A DNA stretch of 38,546 nt from an uncultured Planctomycetales bacterium. GTDB lineage: Bacteria > Planctomycetota > UBA1135. A program made the translations under genes and the position numbers. The notes under the pieces are model-generated. The model was not told where the DNA came from, searched no databases, and saw only the letters and a program-made list of their open reading frames with translations. Positions 1 to 15,806 of this stretch are shown piece after piece (within the stretch, counting starts at the first letter, position 1; each line of letters opens with the position of its first letter). The DNA lies in contig CAYXFZ010000008.1 in assembly GCA_964464385.1 (NCBI GenBank), positions 1 to 38,546 of the forward strand, in the 5' to 3' direction.

Positions 1-254
1 ATACCCAACCTGAGCAAGAAGGATGGGGCATGGATCAAGCCTTGACTCGTCAAGAGGCCCTTTCCATGCTCACGGAGTGGCCGGCCTTCGCCGCATTTCG
101 CGAACATGATTTGGGCCGCATTGCCCCCGGAATGCATGCGGATTTGGTCGTGCTCAACCGCGATTTGACAACAATTCCACTAGAACAAATCTCGGGGTCG
201 ATTGTCCTCTTCACGATCTTCGCCGGAAACATTGTCTTTCAGGCCGAGTTCTGA
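1..254 (+). CDS. Amidohydrolase-family (metal-dependent hydrolase) protein, C-terminal fragment; the gene starts left of the window
   Basis: The frame is open from the window edge. The tail GMHADLVVLNRDLTTIPLEQI...TIFAGNIVF matches the usual C-terminal pattern of amidohydrolase_3-type enzymes (ADLVVLDRD...V..T.V.G..V). Confidence 0.55.
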   Translation, partial: TQPEQEGWGMDQALTRQEALSMLTEWPAFAAFREHDLGRIAPGMHADLVVLNRDLTTIPLEQISGSIVLFTIFAGNIVFQAEF

Positions 255-1103
255 GCGGATCGCTTTTTCCAGTTGATCGGGACGGAATCCCTGAGGCCCC
301 CGCCCACCGACGAATCCCAATGTTCCATCTTTGGTAATCAGGTAGAGTCGGTCTGGATGGGCGGACCAAGTGGCACTGACCTTATTGTCCAAGAGGTCCA
401 CTACGGTGGGTAGGGTCTTCAAGGACAAGCCAACGGCGCACCGTCCGGCCACGGCCAAGCGTTCTTTCAAAGTCGCAGGCTCCTCAACCAAAGGGGCGCC
501 TCGGCGTGTGTTGGGGGATCGGCCATCCATGGCATGGGCCTCGGCGATGTAAACAAGAAGAAACTGCACACGGTCTCCGTATTCCTCAAAGAGTTTATTC
601 AGCCGACCGGCCGAAGAGCGAAAGGGTGGTCATGTGTATGAACCGAAAATAAGTGCGACGGGTTTTTTGTTGGCAAAAGAAGAAAGTCGAATCGAGGGTC
701 GAGGCTCCTTTCCGATTTTTTTCTTTCCGGTTTGTTTTGCTGCATGAACCAGGATGGGAAGCTTGAAATCCGGGGCGACTTGGCCGACTTGCAGAGCAGG
801 GACTCGCGCGCGGCGGGATAGTTGGGAAGAATCTCGGGATCCTGGTCGTGCCGAGCGACGGCCTCGAGATGGACGACCGAACGAGCTCCAGTCTTCTAGA
901 CTCAAGGTGCCGTCACCGTTTCGATCTAGGTTCCCAAAAGCATCATCCGAGCGGGAGTATTCTTCGCGAGTAATGATTCCGTTGTCATCTGCGTCGTACT
1001 TTTCGGTCAAGTATTCCCAAGGATTCGACGGCGCCGTTTTCTCTCCCGGGGGGAGTGGAGCAGGATCTTGAATGGCAAGACAGAAAAGGAGGGTCATCAG
1101 CAT
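180..1103 (-). CDS. Secreted EF-hand + iodothyronine-deiodinase-like (thioredoxin-fold) selenoprotein; in-frame UGA (Sec) at 630..632
   Basis: ORFs 630..1184 and 180..569 share one frame (1184-569=615). Read-through gives ...KKPVALIFGSYT-U-PPFRSSAGRLNKLFEEYGDRVQFLLVYIAEAHAMDG..., the deiodinase active-site signature. EF-hand loops are DADDNGIITREE and DRNGDGTLSLED. The signal peptide MLMTLLFCLAIQ starts at ATG 1103; the extension to 1184 runs into a terminator hairpin. Confidence 0.8.
598..615 (-). promoter_or_regulatory. Candidate bacterial SECIS hairpin (7-bp stem, GGUC tetraloop), 14 nt downstream of the UGA
   Basis: Minus-strand mRNA: UGA CCACCCUUUCGCUC UUCGGCC-GGUC-GGCUGAA. The stem pairs U-A, U-A, C-G, G.U, G-C, C-G, C-G. 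Loop sequence and spacing resemble the E. coli fdhF SECIS apical hairpin (GCA-GGUC-UGC). Confidence 0.55.
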
Positions 1104-1154
1104 GACGGAAGAAACCCTACTTCTGACCTGAGGTTTCGGGGGGTGATTTGACCC

Positions 1155-1193
1155 CAAAAAAGGAACCGGCCCCCGTGCAAGCACGGGGGCCGG
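1155..1193 (-). terminator. Rho-independent terminator downstream of the 1217..2986 gene
   Basis: Perfect 12-bp stem CCGGCCCCCGTG-CAAG-CACGGGGGCCGG (1166..1193), followed on the minus strand by TTCCTTTTTTG. Confidence 0.65.
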
Positions 1194-1216
1194 TATCTAA
1201 GGGAAAAGGTCAGCCG

Positions 1217-9959: not shown

Positions 9960-10429
9960 TGGGAGTAGTCTTCGCAGTCCGGGTTCATGAGGTCTCGCCA
10001 AGGTTCCTCCTGGCAACAGTCCACCACCATGGGCTCTTGAAATTTTGGACTAGCCAAAGCCACCAGAAAAACACAAGGCTCTGAAGAAGTGTTGTAGGTG
10101 CCGTGCACTTCTCCAGGTGGAATATGGGCCACGTCTCCAGCTTGCATGGGGCGTGGGTCCTCTCCAACCCATTGCGTGGCCGTGCCCTCCAAGAAATAGA
10201 TTGCTTCTTCGAAATGGGGATGAAAGTGAAATCGATGCGCTTGGCCTGGGCCCATGGTTACCCGAACCACCATCAAATGTTCACTCTGGGTGAGAGGGGC
10301 TTGCACGAACCATTCGTTTTCTCCCCACGGAGTCTCCTCGACCAAAACATTGGGGGTAGCAACAAACCGGAGGCACTCTTTTCCGCACATGCCTCCATGG
10401 TATCGGATGACTTCTATACTTTTCTCCAT
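9956..10429 (-). CDS. Cupin-domain protein
   Basis: Cupin_2 motifs GPGQAHRFHFHPHFEEAIYFLEG and GDVAHIPPGEVHG. ATG 10429 is preceded by AGGGAGGAG 8 nt upstream. Confidence 0.75.
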   Translation of the reverse strand: MEKSIEVIRYHGGMCGKECLRFVATPNVLVEETPWGENEWFVQAPLTQSEHLMVVRVTMGPGQAHRFHFHPHFEEAIYFLEGTATQWVGEDPRPMQAGDVAHIPPGEVHGTYNTSSEPCVFLVALASPKFQEPMVVDCCQEEPWRDLMNPDCEDYSQ

Positions 10430-11645
10430 GATTGAGGCTCCTCCCTTTCTGATCTTGGCGACCTGCGATACCAAGGGGGAAGAGGGAGCTTGGATTCGGG
10501 ACCGGTTGCTCTCAATTGGTTTGCGAGCCCACTTGGTAGATGTTGGCGTTTTGGGCGACCCGGTCGTGGCCCCGGATGTGCCAGCAATCGAGCTCATCCC
10601 TGAATGGGAACAGATTCGGAGTCTTCCTCGCGGGGAGGCTGTGAATCGAATGGCGGAGGGCGCGGCTCGCTGGGCTGGAGCTCATGCCCACGAAATTCGA
10701 GGGGTCCTGGCATTGGGAGGTAGTGCTGGTACCACGATTGCCTGCCAAGTCATGCGATCCCTTCCCCCTGGGATGCCCAGAGTTATGATTTCTACTTTGG
10801 CTGCTGGCCCAGTGGAGCACTATGTCCAAGGACATGAGATTCATATGGTGGATCCATTGGTGGATGTCGCCGGATTGAATCGGATTTCTCGTCGAACATT
10901 CTCTCAAGCCCTCACTCTCCTCTTGAACCTGGCCCACTTGGAGCTTGTTTTACCGGAAGACAACATTCCAGAGGATCGACCCCTGGTCGCCGCGACGATG
11001 TTTGGAGTGACCACGGCCTGCGTTGATGAAGCCAGACGACTCGGTGAAGAACGGGGCTGGGAAGTCCTGGTCTTTCATGCCACGGGTCATGGGGGAGCCA
11101 CTATGGAAAAATTCATTCGGGATGGCCGAATTCATGGTGTTTTGGATTTCACAACTACGGAAATTGCAGATGAATGTGTCGGCGGGGTCCTCTCTGCTGG
11201 ACCATCTCGATTGACGGCGGCCGCTGAAAAAGGGGTTCCTCAAGTGGTTTGCCCTGGTGCAACCGATATGGTCAACTTTCTCTCGCCAGAAACGGTACCC
11301 CTCACTTTTTCTAGTCGCAAGTTTCATGTTCACAACGCAAACGTCACTTTGATGCGGACTACCACGAAGGAGTGCCTGGAAATTGGTGAGAATATCGGTA
11401 GGAAGCTTTGTCCTGCGCATGCGACCACTCGATGTCTTTTCCCGAAAAGAGGTGTATCTGCACTGGACGCGCCCGGTCAGCCCTTCGAAGATGGGGAGGC
11501 AAGACAGGCCCTGTACCGGGCATGGAGGATCCATGCCTCTCCGACCCCCTGTCTGGAATTGGACTTGCACTTGAATGACCCTTCTTTTGCCAAGGAAGCG
11601 GTCGCCCATCTCGACCAACTCATGAACACCAATCAACATGTCTGA
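10428..11645 (+). CDS. UPF0261 family protein (Tm-1 N-terminal-half-like, putative nucleotide-binding)
   Basis: N-terminus [15 protein letters not shown]..., with ...[10 protein letters not shown]... and [11 protein letters not shown] typical of UPF0261. The start is uncertain (ATG 10428, or CTG/TTG within 27 nt). Confidence 0.8.
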
Positions 11646-12471
11646 CCATTCCCGCCAAGCCATTCTGAAGCGTTTTCGACAGCGTATTGCCAACAAGGAA
11701 CCCATCATTGGGGGTGGCGCCGGCACAGGGATTTCCGCGAAGAGTGAGGAAGCTGGCGGGATTGATCTTCTCATTCTCTACAACTCTGGTCGGTACCGCA
11801 TGGCTGGTCGAGGCTCGACGGCGGGTTTGATGCCCTATGGCAATGCCAATGAAATCGTCAAGGAAATGGCCTATGAGATTTTGCCTGTGGTTCAACACAC
11901 ACCTGTTCTTGCTGGCGTTTGTGCTACCGATCCCTTCATCATGCCTCAACAGTTTTTGGAGGACTTAAGGGCATTGGGTTTCGCGGGAATTCAGAATTTT
12001 CCAACCGTGGGTCTCTTTGAGGGGCGCATCCGACAAACCCTGGAGGAAACCGGAATGAGTTACCAGCTGGAAGTGGATATGGTTGCCCTAGCCCACGAAA
12101 TGGACATGCTGACCACGCCCTATGTTTTCAATCCCGAGGAAGCTCAGCGCATGACCGAAGCTGGCGCGGATCTCGTGGTTGCTCACATGGGTTGCACCAG
12201 TGGGGGCACCATCGGAGCCGAGACTGTAGATCCCCTGGAGGAATGCATTCCCTTGATTCAAAGCATTGTGGATACTTGCAAAGGTCTGCGTGAAGATGTC
12301 CTTTGCCTTTGCCATGGCGGTCCGATCGCAACACCATCCGACGCCCAGTCTATTCTTGAAAGTGTGTCCGGACTCGACGGATTTTATGGGGCAAGCTCCA
12401 TGGAGCGGTTTCCCGCCGAAATTGCAATTCGAGATCAAATTCGAGCATTCAAGGAAATCCGACTTTCCTGA
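11638..12471 (+). CDS. Phosphoenolpyruvate hydrolase-like TIM-barrel protein (Tm-1 C-terminal-half-like)
   Basis: [49 protein letters not shown]...[26 protein letters not shown]...[19 protein letters not shown]. Overlaps the upstream gene by 8 nt. Confidence 0.85.
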
Positions 12472-15400
12472 TGGCCGTTATCCTGCTGCTCTTCCTTCCT
12501 GGCCTTGGGCAAGCCGAGTCGTCATTCTCCACAGATCGATTGCATGTTTTGTACATTGGCGATCGCGGGCACCATCAGCCTCTGGCTCGGATCAAAGATG
12601 TTTGGGGCCCCTTGGCGCGGGCTGGGATTGCCGTGGAGTGGGAGGAGGATCTCGGTGCCGTGACCCCTCAGCGGTTGCTGGACTTTGATTGTGTTTGGAT
12701 GTATGCAAATCAGGCCCAGAACGCCATCGTTCCGCCCAAGTTTTTTTCTGCCCTTCAGGGATTTGTTCGCAAGGGTGGCGGCTTTCTCGCACTGCATTGC
12801 ACGAGCGGTTGTTTCATGCAATCCCAGGCGTGGTTGGAATTTATCGGTGCTCGCTTTGTCTCTCATGGTGCGGAGGTCTTTCGGCAGACGGTTCTTGTCC
12901 AAGATCATCCCCTCCTGCGCGGGTGGCAGAACTTTGAATCCGGGGATGAAACTTATGTGCAGACACACTATGACGGCGGCCGTGAGGTCTTGGCCATGCG
13001 AGGCACGGAGCCTTGGATGTGGATTCGACAAGAGGGTCAGGGCCGCGTTTTCTATTGCGCCTCAGGGCATGACGCTCGAACTTGGCAGGAACCAGGATTT
13101 TTGGATCTCTTGATTCGAGCCACGGATTGGACTTCGGGTCCCGAAGCTGCAGCCAGGAGGGCCGCTTTTCGATTGCCTGAGTTTGATTACGAAGAGCGAG
13201 AATTTGTTCCCAACTATGAAGAGTGGGATCCGCGGATGCTTTTCCAACTGCCTTCCACCCCCGCCCAGGCCCAAGCCCATCTTCAGCCCCCGGCTGGAAT
13301 GGAGGCTCGGCTTTTTGCAGCGGAACCCATGGTGGTGAATCCCATCGCTTTGGATTGGGATCTCCGGGGCCGATGCTGGGTCATTGAGACACCGGATTAC
13401 CCCAACGAGGTCCGCCAGAAGGGGGGGACGGACCGGATTTCCATCTTGGAGGACACGAATGGGGACGGTGTTGCCGACAAGAAGACCGTCTTTGCCGATG
13501 GACTCAATTTGCCCACCGGGCTTCTTCTTGTGCCGGATGGAGTGGTTGTTGCCATGGCTCCCGATCTCCTGCTGTTTCGGGACACGAATGGGGATGATCA
13601 GGAAGATGAGCGCTTGATCCTGACGTCTGGATTCGGGCGTTTCGATACGCACGCAGGCCCTTCCAACCTTCGGTTTGGCCCGGACAACGCCATCTGGGGG
13701 GCGGTGGGTTACTCGGCATTCTCGCGAAAGGATGGGAGTCGTTTTGGAAGTGGTCTCTGGAGGCTCCTGCCAGGTGCACAAGAACCCCAATTTATGGCCC
13801 AATTCACGAACAATACTTGGGGTTTGGGATTGCGAGATGACGGAGAAGTCTTTGGCTCTACCGCAAATGGTGCCCCTTCCTTCTTTGTGGGCGCAAACAA
13901 GCTTCAAATGGCCATCTCGAATCCCAATCACAGTGGCGCCTTGCCCGTCCACGACACCGCCTGGGTGTTTCCTGCCCTTGCTGAAATCCGTCAAGGAGAC
14001 TGGATGGGGCAGTACACCGCTGCCGCCGGGCACTCCTTTTCTACGGGAAGCCAACTCCCGACCTCTTGGAGCGATCGCTCTGCCTTTATTTGTGGGCCGA
14101 CGGCCCATACCGTAGGTCGTTTCGATACTTCCATGGTGGGGGCCGGGTGGGAGAGCCGCAATGCTCTCAACCTTTGCGCTTCCACGGATGATTGGTTTTG
14201 CCCTGTCCAAGCATCCGTCGGGCCGGATGGAGCGGTTTGGATCGCAGATTTTTCCCAATTCATTATTTTGCACAACTTGCCGGGAAACCCGGAGCGCGGT
14301 CTGCCAAAAATCGAATATGGGGAGGGAAGTGCACACCTCAATCCCATGCGTGACCAATCTCATGGGCGGATTTGGCGTCTTGTGCGCAAAGAGGGCGCGT
14401 TTTCCAAACCCAAGATTGCGGATTCCTCACCGGACTCTTTCTTGAAAACCTTGGGTCACCCAAATCGATTTTTGCGGACTACGGCTCGGCAGCACTTGAT
14501 TGCGGAGCCACCGTCCGGGTTAACTCCTTCCCTGGTCCAGCTCATTACAAATGGCCCCCCTTTGGCCGCCATGGAGGCATTGAGGATTTTGCCAGCAATG
14601 GTTTCCATTTCTCAAGAGGAATGGAAAAAGGTGATGTCCTCCGTTTCTTCTGACTCGGACTTCCGGGTCTTGGTCGCACTTCTTCAGACCATGCCGGCCT
14701 CGGATGCTTCGGCAAACTGGCTTGTTGAATCCGATGTGCTGAACCATGCCAGCCCATCCATCCGGCGTCATGCCCTGCTTGCAGCATCACGTATGCCGGA
14801 ATCCGCTGTGCTTGGAATTTCCTTGGTGAGTCGCGCGATATTGGAATCTCCGGAGGACACATGGATGACTTTGGCGCTTCGGGCGGCGATCGTTGCTCAC
14901 CCCACCTCTTTCTTGAAATCGGCCTTGCCCTTATTGAAGAGGGATTCCCAGGCCCCATCGGCAAACGAATTGCCCAACCCTGGTTTCGAATGGTCCGATC
15001 CGGCTCACCCATCGGATCCATTGGGTTGGCGCGAGCGATCATATGGCGGCGTAGCCGAGGTGTCTTGGAGTTTGAACGGAGGACGCAACGGCAGCAGAGC
15101 TCTTCGAATTTCATCCCAAACCGGTGCCGACACTTCTTGGTGCATCGATGTCCCTGTCCGTCCAAATACGCGTTATCGCCTAGGCGGTTGGATTCGGACG
15201 GAGGGATTGACCCATGAGGGAACGACTCACGGAGCATTGATGAATGTGCATCCCACCCGTTCTGTTACGGAGTCTGTGTTTGAAGATTCGGGTTGGACTC
15301 CAGTAGCCGTTGAATTTTCTACCTCCTCGGATCAAGTTTCCGTGAGCTTGAATTGCCTTTTTGGAGGGTGGGGCAAGTCCATAGGTGCGGCCTATTGGGA

Positions 15401-15806
15401 TGACGTGTTTCTGAATCGACTGGGTGATGCGGGCGGTTTGGAGTCTTTGCTTGCCTTGGCCAACAAATATGCCAAGGAGGGTGCCGATCATGAGCCGGAT
15501 GCGCCAATGGACGTCTTGCTCGAGAATGGAGATGCAACGAGAGGCGAGCAAGTGTTTTTTCAAAACATGGTTTTGTCATGCAATCGTTGCCACTCCTTGA
15601 GCGGAATCGGCGGGGGTATTGGCCCACCCCTAGACGGGGTGGGATCGAGATTAAGCAAGTTAGAACTCCTTCAATCTATTTTGGATCCAAACGCTAGGTT
15701 GGCAGAAGGGTGGAAAGCGCCGGTCTCCGCCATGCCTGCTTTGAGTTCTTTCATGACGGAAGAAGAACTCAGCGACCTCATTTCATTTCTAGAACGTCAG
15801 CGTTGA
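12471..15806 (+). CDS. ThuA-like + PVC-type membrane-bound-dehydrogenase beta-propeller + HEAT-like + CBM4_9-like + C-terminal cytochrome c (CxxCH) multidomain protein
   Basis: Signal peptide [17 protein letters not shown]. ThuA-like: LHVLYIGDRGHH...FYCASGHD. Dehydrogenase domain: LFAAEPMVVNPIALDWDLRGRCWVIETPDYPN. Heme site: SCNRCHSLSG...LDGVG. The ATG shares one nt with the upstream TGA. Confidence 0.85.
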   Translation: MAVILLLFLPGLGQAESSFSTDRLHVLYIGDRGHHQPLARIKDVWGPLARAGIAVEWEEDLGAVTPQRLLDFDCVWMYANQAQNAIVPPKFFSALQGFVRKGGGFLALHCTSGCFMQSQAWLEFIGARFVSHGAEVFRQTVLVQDHPLLRGWQNFESGDETYVQTHYDGGREVLAMRGTEPWMWIRQEGQGRVFYCASGHDARTWQEPGFLDLLIRATDWTSGPEAAARRAAFRLPEFDYEEREFVPNYEEWDPRMLFQLPSTPAQAQAHLQPPAGMEARLFAAEPMVVNPIALDWDLRGRCWVIETPDYPNEVRQKGGTDRISILEDTNGDGVADKKTVFADGLNLPTGLLLVPDGVVVAMAPDLLLFRDTNGDDQEDERLILTSGFGRFDTHAGPSNLRFGPDNAIWGAVGYSAFSRKDGSRFGSGLWRLLPGAQEPQFMAQFTNNTWGLGLRDDGEVFGSTANGAPSFFVGANKLQMAISNPNHSGALPVHDTAWVFPALAEIRQGDWMGQYTAAAGHSFSTGSQLPTSWSDRSAFICGPTAHTVGRFDTSMVGAGWESRNALNLCASTDDWFCPVQASVGPDGAVWIADFSQFIILHNLPGNPERGLPKIEYGEGSAHLNPMRDQSHGRIWRLVRKEGAFSKPKIADSSPDSFLKTLGHPNRFLRTTARQHLIAEPPSGLTPSLVQLITNGPPLAAMEALRILPAMVSISQEEWKKVMSSVSSDSDFRVLVALLQTMPASDASANWLVESDVLNHASPSIRRHALLAASRMPESAVLGISLVSRAILESPEDTWMTLALRAAIVAHPTSFLKSALPLLKRDSQAPSANELPNPGFEWSDPAHPSDPLGWRERSYGGVAEVSWSLNGGRNGSRALRISSQTGADTSWCIDVPVRPNTRYRLGGWIRTEGLTHEGTTHGALMNVHPTRSVTESVFEDSGWTPVAVEFSTSSDQVSVSLNCLFGGWGKSIGAAYWDDVFLNRLGDAGGLESLLALANKYAKEGADHEPDAPMDVLLENGDATRGEQVFFQNMVLSCNRCHSLSGIGGGIGPPLDGVGSRLSKLELLQSILDPNARLAEGWKAPVSAMPALSSFMTEEELSDLISFLERQR

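Follow-up and report, generated by a model that had tools for sequence, protein, structure and literature searches.

A very probable deiodinase-like selenoprotein gene with N-terminal EF-hands, split by an in-frame UGA, in an uncultured Planctomycetales bacterium

Near the start of contig CAYXFZ010000008.1 of an uncultured Planctomycetales bacterium (assembly GCA_964464385.1) two minus-strand open reading frames (ORFs) follow each other in the same frame, which raises the question whether they are two short genes or a single selenoprotein gene in which UGA is read as selenocysteine (Sec). The window referred to below is the whole stretch of DNA that was analyzed, 38,546 nucleotides (nt) in length. 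The upstream ORF (630..1184, minus strand) runs into a TGA at 632..630 directly after ...KKPVALIFGSYT, and the downstream ORF (180..569, minus strand) closes at TAG 182..180. Read through from ATG 1103, the frame encodes a product of 307 amino acids (aa) that reads ...FGSYT, the TGA, and then PPFRSSAGRLNKLFEEYGDRVQFLLVYIAEAHAMDG...LPTVVDLLDNK...PDRLYLITKDG. A preliminary description of this DNA had taken the two ORFs for one recoded gene without any other stop between them. The frame reading confirmed that the intervening 60 nt (629..570) are stop-free, and the union of the two ORFs is upheld by the continuous frame and by Pfam, PDB and NCBIfam alignments that span the TGA. We concluded that 180..1103 (minus strand) is very likely a single selenoprotein gene, a judgement that covers the gene model, the Sec recoding and the assignment to the deiodinase family jointly. 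The features that carry this argument are the following.

180..1103, minus strand: probable complete selenoprotein coding sequence, 307 codons including Sec158 (continuous frame, domain matches across the TGA)
630..632, minus strand: in-frame UGA, very likely Sec158, in FGSYT-U-PPF (aligned to the Sec/Cys column)
598..615, minus strand: putative Sec insertion sequence (SECIS) hairpin, 7-bp stem UUCGGCC/GGCUGAA with apical loop GGUC at 605..608 (fold and covariation)
258..791, minus strand: deiodinase-like thioredoxin/peroxiredoxin-fold catalytic domain, residues ~105-282 (Pfam, NCBIfam, PDB)

For the Pfam, NCBIfam and PDB profile comparisons Cys was set in place of the TGA. The read-through translation matched T4_deiodinase (PF00837) at residues 143-279 with E=1.3e-22 and 80.7 bits (cut-off 27), NCBIfam NF038285 at residues 105-282, and, as the best solved structures by sequence, mouse Dio3 (4TR3, E=3.7e-18) followed by Dio2 (9H48, E=1.7e-13); all of these matches cross the TGA. 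FGSYT-TGA-PPF (630..650) falls exactly over FGSCTCPPF and FGSATCPPF of the Dio3 and Dio2 crystal constructs, which are Sec-to-Cys mutants. T4_deiodinase and EF-hand profiles had been proposed as a check on the read-through translation; the former gave a significant match, the latter scores marginally above their cut-offs. The preliminary description had also listed a series of deiodinase motif blocks. These are present in the window protein, and they are near-invariant (FGSxT-U-PPF, YIxEAH, VD..DN, PDRLYL and GGRGP) in the 84 distinct related sequences, window included (83 Sec, 1 Cys), on which the conservation counts given here are based. Within the active-site motif F153, G154, S155, T157 and P160 are invariant, while F161 is kept in 82 and P159 in 76 out of 84 sequences.

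Ser155, Thr157, Tyr185, Glu188 and His190 are invariant across the same 84 relatives. In Dio3 the proton-relay and substrate residues are Ser167, Thr169, Tyr197, Glu200, His202 and His219, to which Arg275 and Trp207 are added (PMC11592359). With the roles taken from that work, the five invariant residues of the window protein represent five of the six deiodinase proton-relay residues, and the Arg of its GGRGP block aligns with the Dio3 Arg275 column. The fold was examined on an AlphaFold2 (AF2) model of P0001, the closest full-length homologue of the same architecture (42% identical, Leu at the Sec site). The model has a predicted local distance difference test score (pLDDT) of 81.7; its EF-hand helix-loop-helix pair (>90) and its thioredoxin-fold domain are confident, and the basic linker between them is disordered. 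Its best structural matches in PDB are Dio2 9h48 (template modeling score 0.80) and Dio3 4tr3 (0.77), both target-normalised; ResA/TlpA-type periplasmic oxidoreductases and 1-Cys/BCP peroxiredoxins come next. The window protein itself has weak Pfam AhpC-TSA and Redoxin matches under the cut-offs of those families. It resembles peroxiredoxins in fold but is not one of them, with PF00578 (AhpC/TSA) at 21.0 bits, under its cut-off of 26, and a S-Y-T-U motif in which Thr stands directly beside Sec. In the peroxiredoxin motif the Thr stands three residues before the peroxidatic Cys.

The TGA is a property of the family. Related loci were scanned for in one genome per GTDB species with a peptide pattern just upstream of the codon that is neutral to TGA and TGY, and at least 598 were found; among the loci listed, the closest relative is 53% identical to the window protein. 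In the best 80 of these at least 598 loci by similarity to the window protein, the Sec/Cys column contains 79 TGA and 1 TGC. Most of the 80 belong to Planctomycetota, and the rest to Gaiellales/Actinomycetota, Chloroflexota, Latescibacteria, Verrucomicrobia, Binatia and Proteobacteria. The preliminary description had asked whether homologues carry Cys or TGA at this position, or end there without conservation beyond it. Both codon types were observed: full-length homologues P0003-P0010 have Cys (FGSYTCPPF), as do the Dio3/Dio2 constructs, and TGA predominates in the related genomes. An end of conservation was not observed, since all 80 loci carry ~130 further open, conserved codons after the column. 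Between the window and its nearest relatives identity is 53-64% after the TGA (149 codons) vs 44-51% before it. The split at TGA recurs in independent assemblies of other organisms. P0038 and P0040 end exactly after FGSYT, and their contigs carry TGA followed in frame by the conserved deiodinase half, which is annotated at these loci as separate T4_deiodinase proteins of 104-108 aa; the two-fragment output expected of standard gene callers is thus seen in orthologues. At L091 (P0001) and in P0002 the catalytic column is Leu (TTG) or Ser, and these proteins may be non-catalytic. Some Planctomycetota have two Sec paralogues, a short one with two EF-hands and a longer one with three (L012/L072 in CAZUCE01; L015/L041 in JBLIOL01).

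Counted from the U of UGA, the hairpin at 598..615 occupies nt 18-35 and its loop nt 25-28, and the loop lies 21 nt past the UGA. The fdhF gene of E. coli (MG1655 sequence) has an identical GGUC apical loop at nt 22-25. Its determinants for SelB are G23 and U24 of the loop and the bulged U17. A hairpin was found at the matching position in essentially all Sec forms: 69 out of 82 distinct Sec sequences have a contiguous stem of at least 5 bp together with G in the first two loop positions, while shuffled sequences averaged 12 and never exceeded 21. Covariation was scored on set A2, made up of 50 sequences that share the GGUC register. Six of the eight stem pairs changed on both sides (for example UA to GC or CG, and CG to UA), the covariation score was reached by 0 out of 500 shuffles, and pairing dropped from 80% to 11-49% when the partner was slid by 1-3 nt. 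Some of the compensations couple an Ala to Val change (GCC to GUC) on one arm with a synonymous Arg change (CGG to CGA) on the other, which is hard to ascribe to selection on the protein. Across the hairpin the encoded residues AGRL are kept by Sec forms, but Cys forms vary there. In four non-Sec relatives (TGC, TGC, TGT and TTG) 2-4 of 7 positions pair in the GGUC register, and the GGUC loop is absent.

A second, putative SECIS register, with a 3-nt GGU/GGC loop at nt 21-23, is typical of a Gaiellales/Chloroflexota clade. L090 (P0009, Cys TGT), one of the four non-Sec relatives, has a weak relic hairpin in this register (GGCGUC-AGUUG-GACGUC), which may be the mark of a recent Sec-to-Cys conversion. 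Hairpins of the second class, 14-31 nt after the UGA, were seen in L051, L058 and L063-L088 (Gaiellales, Chloroflexota, Pirellulales and others); they lie ~4 nt further upstream than the GGUC class, and their 3' arm often has a bulged A. Rfam gave no SECIS family match in the whole window at gathering thresholds or in 540..680 under permissive settings, and appears to be without a model for such an element.

The fusion of EF-hands to a deiodinase-like domain had been called unusual in the preliminary description, and this was not borne out: 54 out of 84 relatives carry 1-6 N-terminal EF-hand loops, an NCBIfam entry models the combination, and the family has been published since 2005 (PMC1088965). 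The window protein belongs to a selenoprotein family that is already known, is common in Planctomycetota and shows this architecture recurrently. The NCBIfam entry, NF038285 ('deiodinase_rel', a hypothetical equivalog), consists of 347 positions that cover an EF-hand-containing N-terminal region and a deiodinase-like domain. P0010 scores 421 bits over positions 4-347 and P0014 371 bits, against a cut-off of 250; these two, the only homologues to exceed it here, are Cys forms (FGSFTC[GN].F, EAHPTDGW) of ~420-440 aa with more EF-hands. The window protein, in contrast, has EAHAMDG and aligns to the model in two separate segments, its catalytic domain covering model positions 177-340. It represents a related but distinct subfamily, the short two-EF-hand Sec form. 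Other architectures of the same catalytic domain have a C-terminal AhpD/CMD-like domain, N-terminal TPR repeats or C-terminal EF-hands (P0034, P0041, P0047; P0031-P0039; P0029/P0030 and L053). Several such database proteins begin just past the Sec codon and are probably truncated selenoproteins.

The N-terminal half of the window protein and two further elements of its catalytic domain are listed here.

1068..1103, minus strand: hydrophobic N-terminus MLMTLLFCLAIQ, putative export signal with uncertain cleavage site (read from the sequence)
876..1022, minus strand: EF-hand pair, residues ~28-76 (Pfam, loop pattern, AF2 model of a homologue)
960..995, minus strand: EF-hand loop 1, DADDNGIITREE, residues 37-48 from ATG 1103 (canonical pattern)
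891..926, minus strand: EF-hand loop 2, DRNGDGTLSLED, residues 60-71 from ATG 1103 (canonical pattern and Pfam)
792..875, minus strand: basic Arg/Ser-rich linker GRPSRGRRSARPGSRDSSQLSRRARVP, probably disordered (sequence; the equivalent of P0001 has pLDDT <60)
711..749, minus strand: lineage-specific 13-residue insertion V119-G131, VHAAKQTGKKKIG, between two N-terminal strands of the catalytic domain (alignment)
438..440, minus strand: Cys222 (TGC) in the motif ER..VA..C, candidate resolving Cys (conservation)

The likely start is ATG 1103, with ATG 1097 and possibly TTG 1157 as alternatives. GTG 1184 falls within the intrinsic terminator hairpin of the upstream 612-aa gene (1165..1194, minus strand; a 13-bp stem with 11 GC pairs and a T-run) and is therefore an unlikely start, which favours ATG 1103. 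The terminator lies only ~60 nt upstream of the selenoprotein start codon and leaves little space for a promoter of its own. At the other end, a convergent amidohydrolase gene (plus strand, end 254) overlaps the 3' end of the selenoprotein gene by 75 nt. The signal peptide claimed earlier stands in part: a hydrophobic N-terminus is present, but the segment is short and the signal has to be inferred partly via orthologues. Some of these have clear signal peptides (MKTTLALLLVFALPLGLAAQ and ...LGLAAQ, each followed by E) or lipoboxes (L-A-G-C, LLAGC, LSAC), and the N-terminal form '...LLQDPAP' is shared by L011 and L086. Together with the hydrophobic N-terminus, the signal peptides and lipoboxes of the orthologues suggest that the window protein is exported.

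Both canonical 12-residue EF-hand loops noted in the preliminary description were recovered with the pattern D-x-[DNS]-x-[DNSG]-G-x-[ILV]-x-x-x-[DE], and the window protein has two such loops. The second also matches Pfam EF-hand_5 at 26.8 (cut-off 25.9), EF-hand_6 at 26.0 (25) and EF-hand_1 at 25.5 (25.4). The pair is presumed to bind Ca2+. Lanmodulin-like lanthanide binding was considered after weak LanM matches in relatives. Pro at loop position 2 is a mark of lanmodulin EF-hand loops, and this candidate was rejected because the window loops are without it.

In the catalytic domain, Cys222 is kept in 79 out of 84 relatives and is invariant in alignment A1; its column differs from that of the distal Cys of Dio3. 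By analogy with the peroxiredoxin-like re-reduction cascade of deiodinases (PMC11592359), it is a plausible resolving Cys. The insertion V119-G131 is Lys-rich, and its columns are gapped in 72-77 out of 84 relatives; L001 has a longer insertion at the same site. Dio2 has an isoform-specific insertion at roughly this place (PMC11592359). Trp246 of the window protein is Tyr in 83 of the 84 relatives.

Several findings weigh against the selenoprotein reading or against some part of it. selA, selB, selD and tRNA-Sec were not found within the 38.5-kb window in Pfam, tRNA and Rfam searches. The 71-nt stretch 570..640 is no more stable than its shuffles (z=0.17), and the case for the SECIS therefore rests on comparative data, for which the A2 sequences were picked partly by hairpin register. 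The Dio3 His219 column is Pro and the Trp207 (loop-D) column is Arg in the window protein, and the structure model depicts homologue P0001, which has Leu at the Sec site, rather than the window protein. The window protein scores 176.1 bits against NF038285, under the cut-off of 250 bits, and its Pfam EF-hand scores exceed their thresholds only marginally. If ATG 1103 is the start, the N-terminus is short and has no basic n-region, and export is not proven. In addition, the bacterial deiodinase-like family has no member with demonstrated activity (PMC1088965; PMC13188914).

The first of these findings would suit a relic, that is, a true selenoprotein family in an organism that has lost its Sec-insertion machinery, so that the gene is no longer expressed at full length. 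A 38-kb window would, however, seldom hold sel genes, and we regard a relic as very unlikely because the ORF and the catalytic residues are intact, as are the SECIS stem and its GGUC loop, and there is neither a frameshift nor an extra stop. The protein is ~50-60% identical to its nearest relatives, and such preservation is unexpected after loss of decoding. Even less credible is a genuine stop at the TGA, either in a nonsense pseudogene or between two genes, the first for an EF-hand protein and the second for a short thioredoxin-fold fragment that starts at GTG 569. It is true that this GTG is available, that TGA is the usual stop in the window and that gene callers split the orthologues likewise. 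But the TGA divides one thioredoxin fold between beta1 and alpha1, at the catalytic residue, and with the break in mid-fold neither half could fold alone. TGA is found in 79 out of 80 divergent species; the frame beyond it stays open there and is better conserved than the part before it, and the 60 nt between the supposed genes encode conserved residues (PPFRSSAGRL...). That UGA is read as an ordinary amino acid (Trp, Gly or Cys) by a reassigned code or by near-cognate read-through has a negligible probability: read-through is clearly needed and UGA is reassigned in some bacterial lineages, but 14 out of 27 confident window genes stop at TGA, homologues have Cys in this column and animal deiodinases Sec, and a hairpin of the SelB type, its loop identical in sequence to that of fdhF, is conserved at a suitable distance. 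TGA is the commonest stop of the confident genes, and full-length Pfam matches end there. Because it terminates this many genes, the organism uses the standard code.

The Sec-encoding gene can be compared with several known systems. Deiodinase-like bacterial proteins with Sec and Cys forms and a bacterial SECIS were described from the Sargasso Sea in 2005 by Zhang, Fomenko and Gladyshev (PMC1088965), and the family appears in current reviews with the motif UxxC (PMC9312934; PMC13188914). The window protein resembles the 2005 family in its PF00837 domain, in the existence of Sec and Cys forms, in a UGA followed by a SECIS hairpin whose small apical loop contains G, and in a thioredoxin-like fold with presumed redox function. 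Unlike the UxxC of the reviews, it has U-P-P-F, as animal deiodinases do. A text search of the literature turned up no mention of an EF-hand fusion in the bacterial family, and the EF-hand pair, the export signal and the dominance of Planctomycetota are not mentioned in the descriptions of that family (PMC1088965; PMC9312934; PMC13188914). With Dio1-3 (4TR3, 9H48; PMC11592359) the window protein shares fold, family, the FGS-x-T-U-PPF motif, the Ser/Thr/Tyr/Glu/His network, the GGRGP Arg and the predicted Sec nucleophile. It differs from them in having a putative export signal and EF-hands instead of an N-terminal transmembrane anchor, and a bacterial hairpin within the ORF instead of a SECIS in the 3'-untranslated region; in the window subfamily neither the second relay His nor the loop-D Trp is conserved, and thyroid hormones are not an expected substrate.

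Calredoxin of Chlamydomonas (CRX, 5E37; PMC4911631) likewise has EF-hands N-terminal to a thioredoxin-fold redox domain and is an earlier case of thiol redox activity under the control of Ca2+ (PMC4911631). It differs in having four EF-hands and a CxxC thioredoxin without Sec, and it is a eukaryotic chloroplast protein; the comparison with the window protein gave E=0.64, which is not significant, and the likeness is an architectural analogy only. ResA/TlpA/DsbE proteins and 1-Cys/BCP peroxiredoxins are exported or periplasmic, as the window protein is predicted to be, and resemble it in having the nucleophile at the N-terminus of alpha1. In contrast to them, the window protein has no CxxC, Thr157 is adjacent to Sec158 and the deiodinase-specific insertion is present.

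The following mechanism is proposed. The hairpin at 598..615 would act as a bacterial SECIS and recruit SelB-GTP-Sec-tRNA(Sec), so that UGA 630..632 is read as Sec; the gene, the codon and the hairpin were observed directly, and the part given to SelB is inferred from how Sec insertion is known to work in bacteria. The mature protein would consist of the EF-hand pair, a flexible basic linker and a C-terminal domain of thioredoxin/peroxiredoxin fold and deiodinase family. The selenolate of Sec158, within the network of Ser155, Thr157, Tyr185, Glu188 and His190, would serve as nucleophile; its target would be an electrophilic oxygen or halogen on a small substrate that is met in the periplasm or on the cell surface. 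Cys222 could then resolve the oxidised Se to a selenenylsulfide, and an external thiol reductant would regenerate the enzyme. Outside the cytoplasm, the EF-hand pair would most likely stabilise the enzyme or gate it by Ca2+. The recurrent fusion of the catalytic domain to EF-hands and export signals suggests that the chemistry takes place outside the cytoplasm and depends on Ca2+.

The peroxiredoxin- or deiodinase-type chemistry and the substrate are proposed with low confidence. In P0041 and P0047 the same catalytic domain is fused to AhpD/CMD-like modules, which hints at peroxide or thiol redox chemistry, and a peroxide-type oxidant seems a somewhat likelier substrate than an organohalogen. 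Dehalogenation is kept under consideration because features specific to deiodinases are retained. We regard it as unlikely that the Planctomycetota EF-hand/deiodinase-like selenoproteins are extracytoplasmic, Ca2+-dependent reductive dehalogenases that strip I or Br from halogenated phenolics, e.g., iodotyrosine-like or bromophenol algal metabolites. The idea is compatible with the data in that the deiodinase-type active-site network, the GGRGP Arg and the deiodinase-specific insertion are all kept. If true, it would provide a functional bacterial counterpart of thyroid-hormone deiodinase chemistry with a role in marine halogen cycling.

For this locus the analysis yields a corrected gene model, along with a sign of selenium use by the organism. 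Thyroid-hormone deiodinases have their bacterial counterpart in the wider family, which is widespread, with at least 598 loci in Planctomycetota, Gaiellales, Chloroflexota and other phyla. In most of the ~80 related genomes examined, gene callers would split it into two meaningless pieces, a systematic annotation error, and the family is under-represented in protein databases because the gene is split at the UGA. The remaining interest lies in the scale of this mis-annotation, in the biochemistry of bacterial deiodinase homologues and in the context of export and Ca2+, which narrows the functional experiments and makes the biochemistry testable.

Elsewhere in the window, no further selenoprotein gene was identified among 55 in-frame TGAs flanked on each side by 60 or more open codons, of which the four longest-flanked were inspected besides 630..632; those four were overlaps of real genes in other frames or frame-sharing neighbours. 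The sole tRNA is a tRNA-Arg (CCT). The gene neighbourhoods of the window and of L001-L007 have nothing in common and therefore offer no operon clue to function. The segment 22775..30873 resembles reductive pyrimidine catabolism, with genes for an aldehyde dehydrogenase, a CN-hydrolase (beta-ureidopropionase-like), an amidohydrolase (dihydropyrimidinase-like), a class-III aminotransferase and a DHO_dh-family protein; it also includes a cytosine/uracil permease on the minus strand and then a cytidine/dCMP deaminase. An aldehyde dehydrogenase identical to one of the window is encoded on an 18.7-kb metagenome scaffold in ENA (HARO18-2_SAMN05992386_METAG-scaffold_4101). At 12471..15806 (plus strand) a gene for a 1111-aa fusion of ThuA, DUF7133 and a C-terminal cytochrome c was found, preceded by a UPF0261/PEP-hydrolase-like gene pair at 10254..12471.

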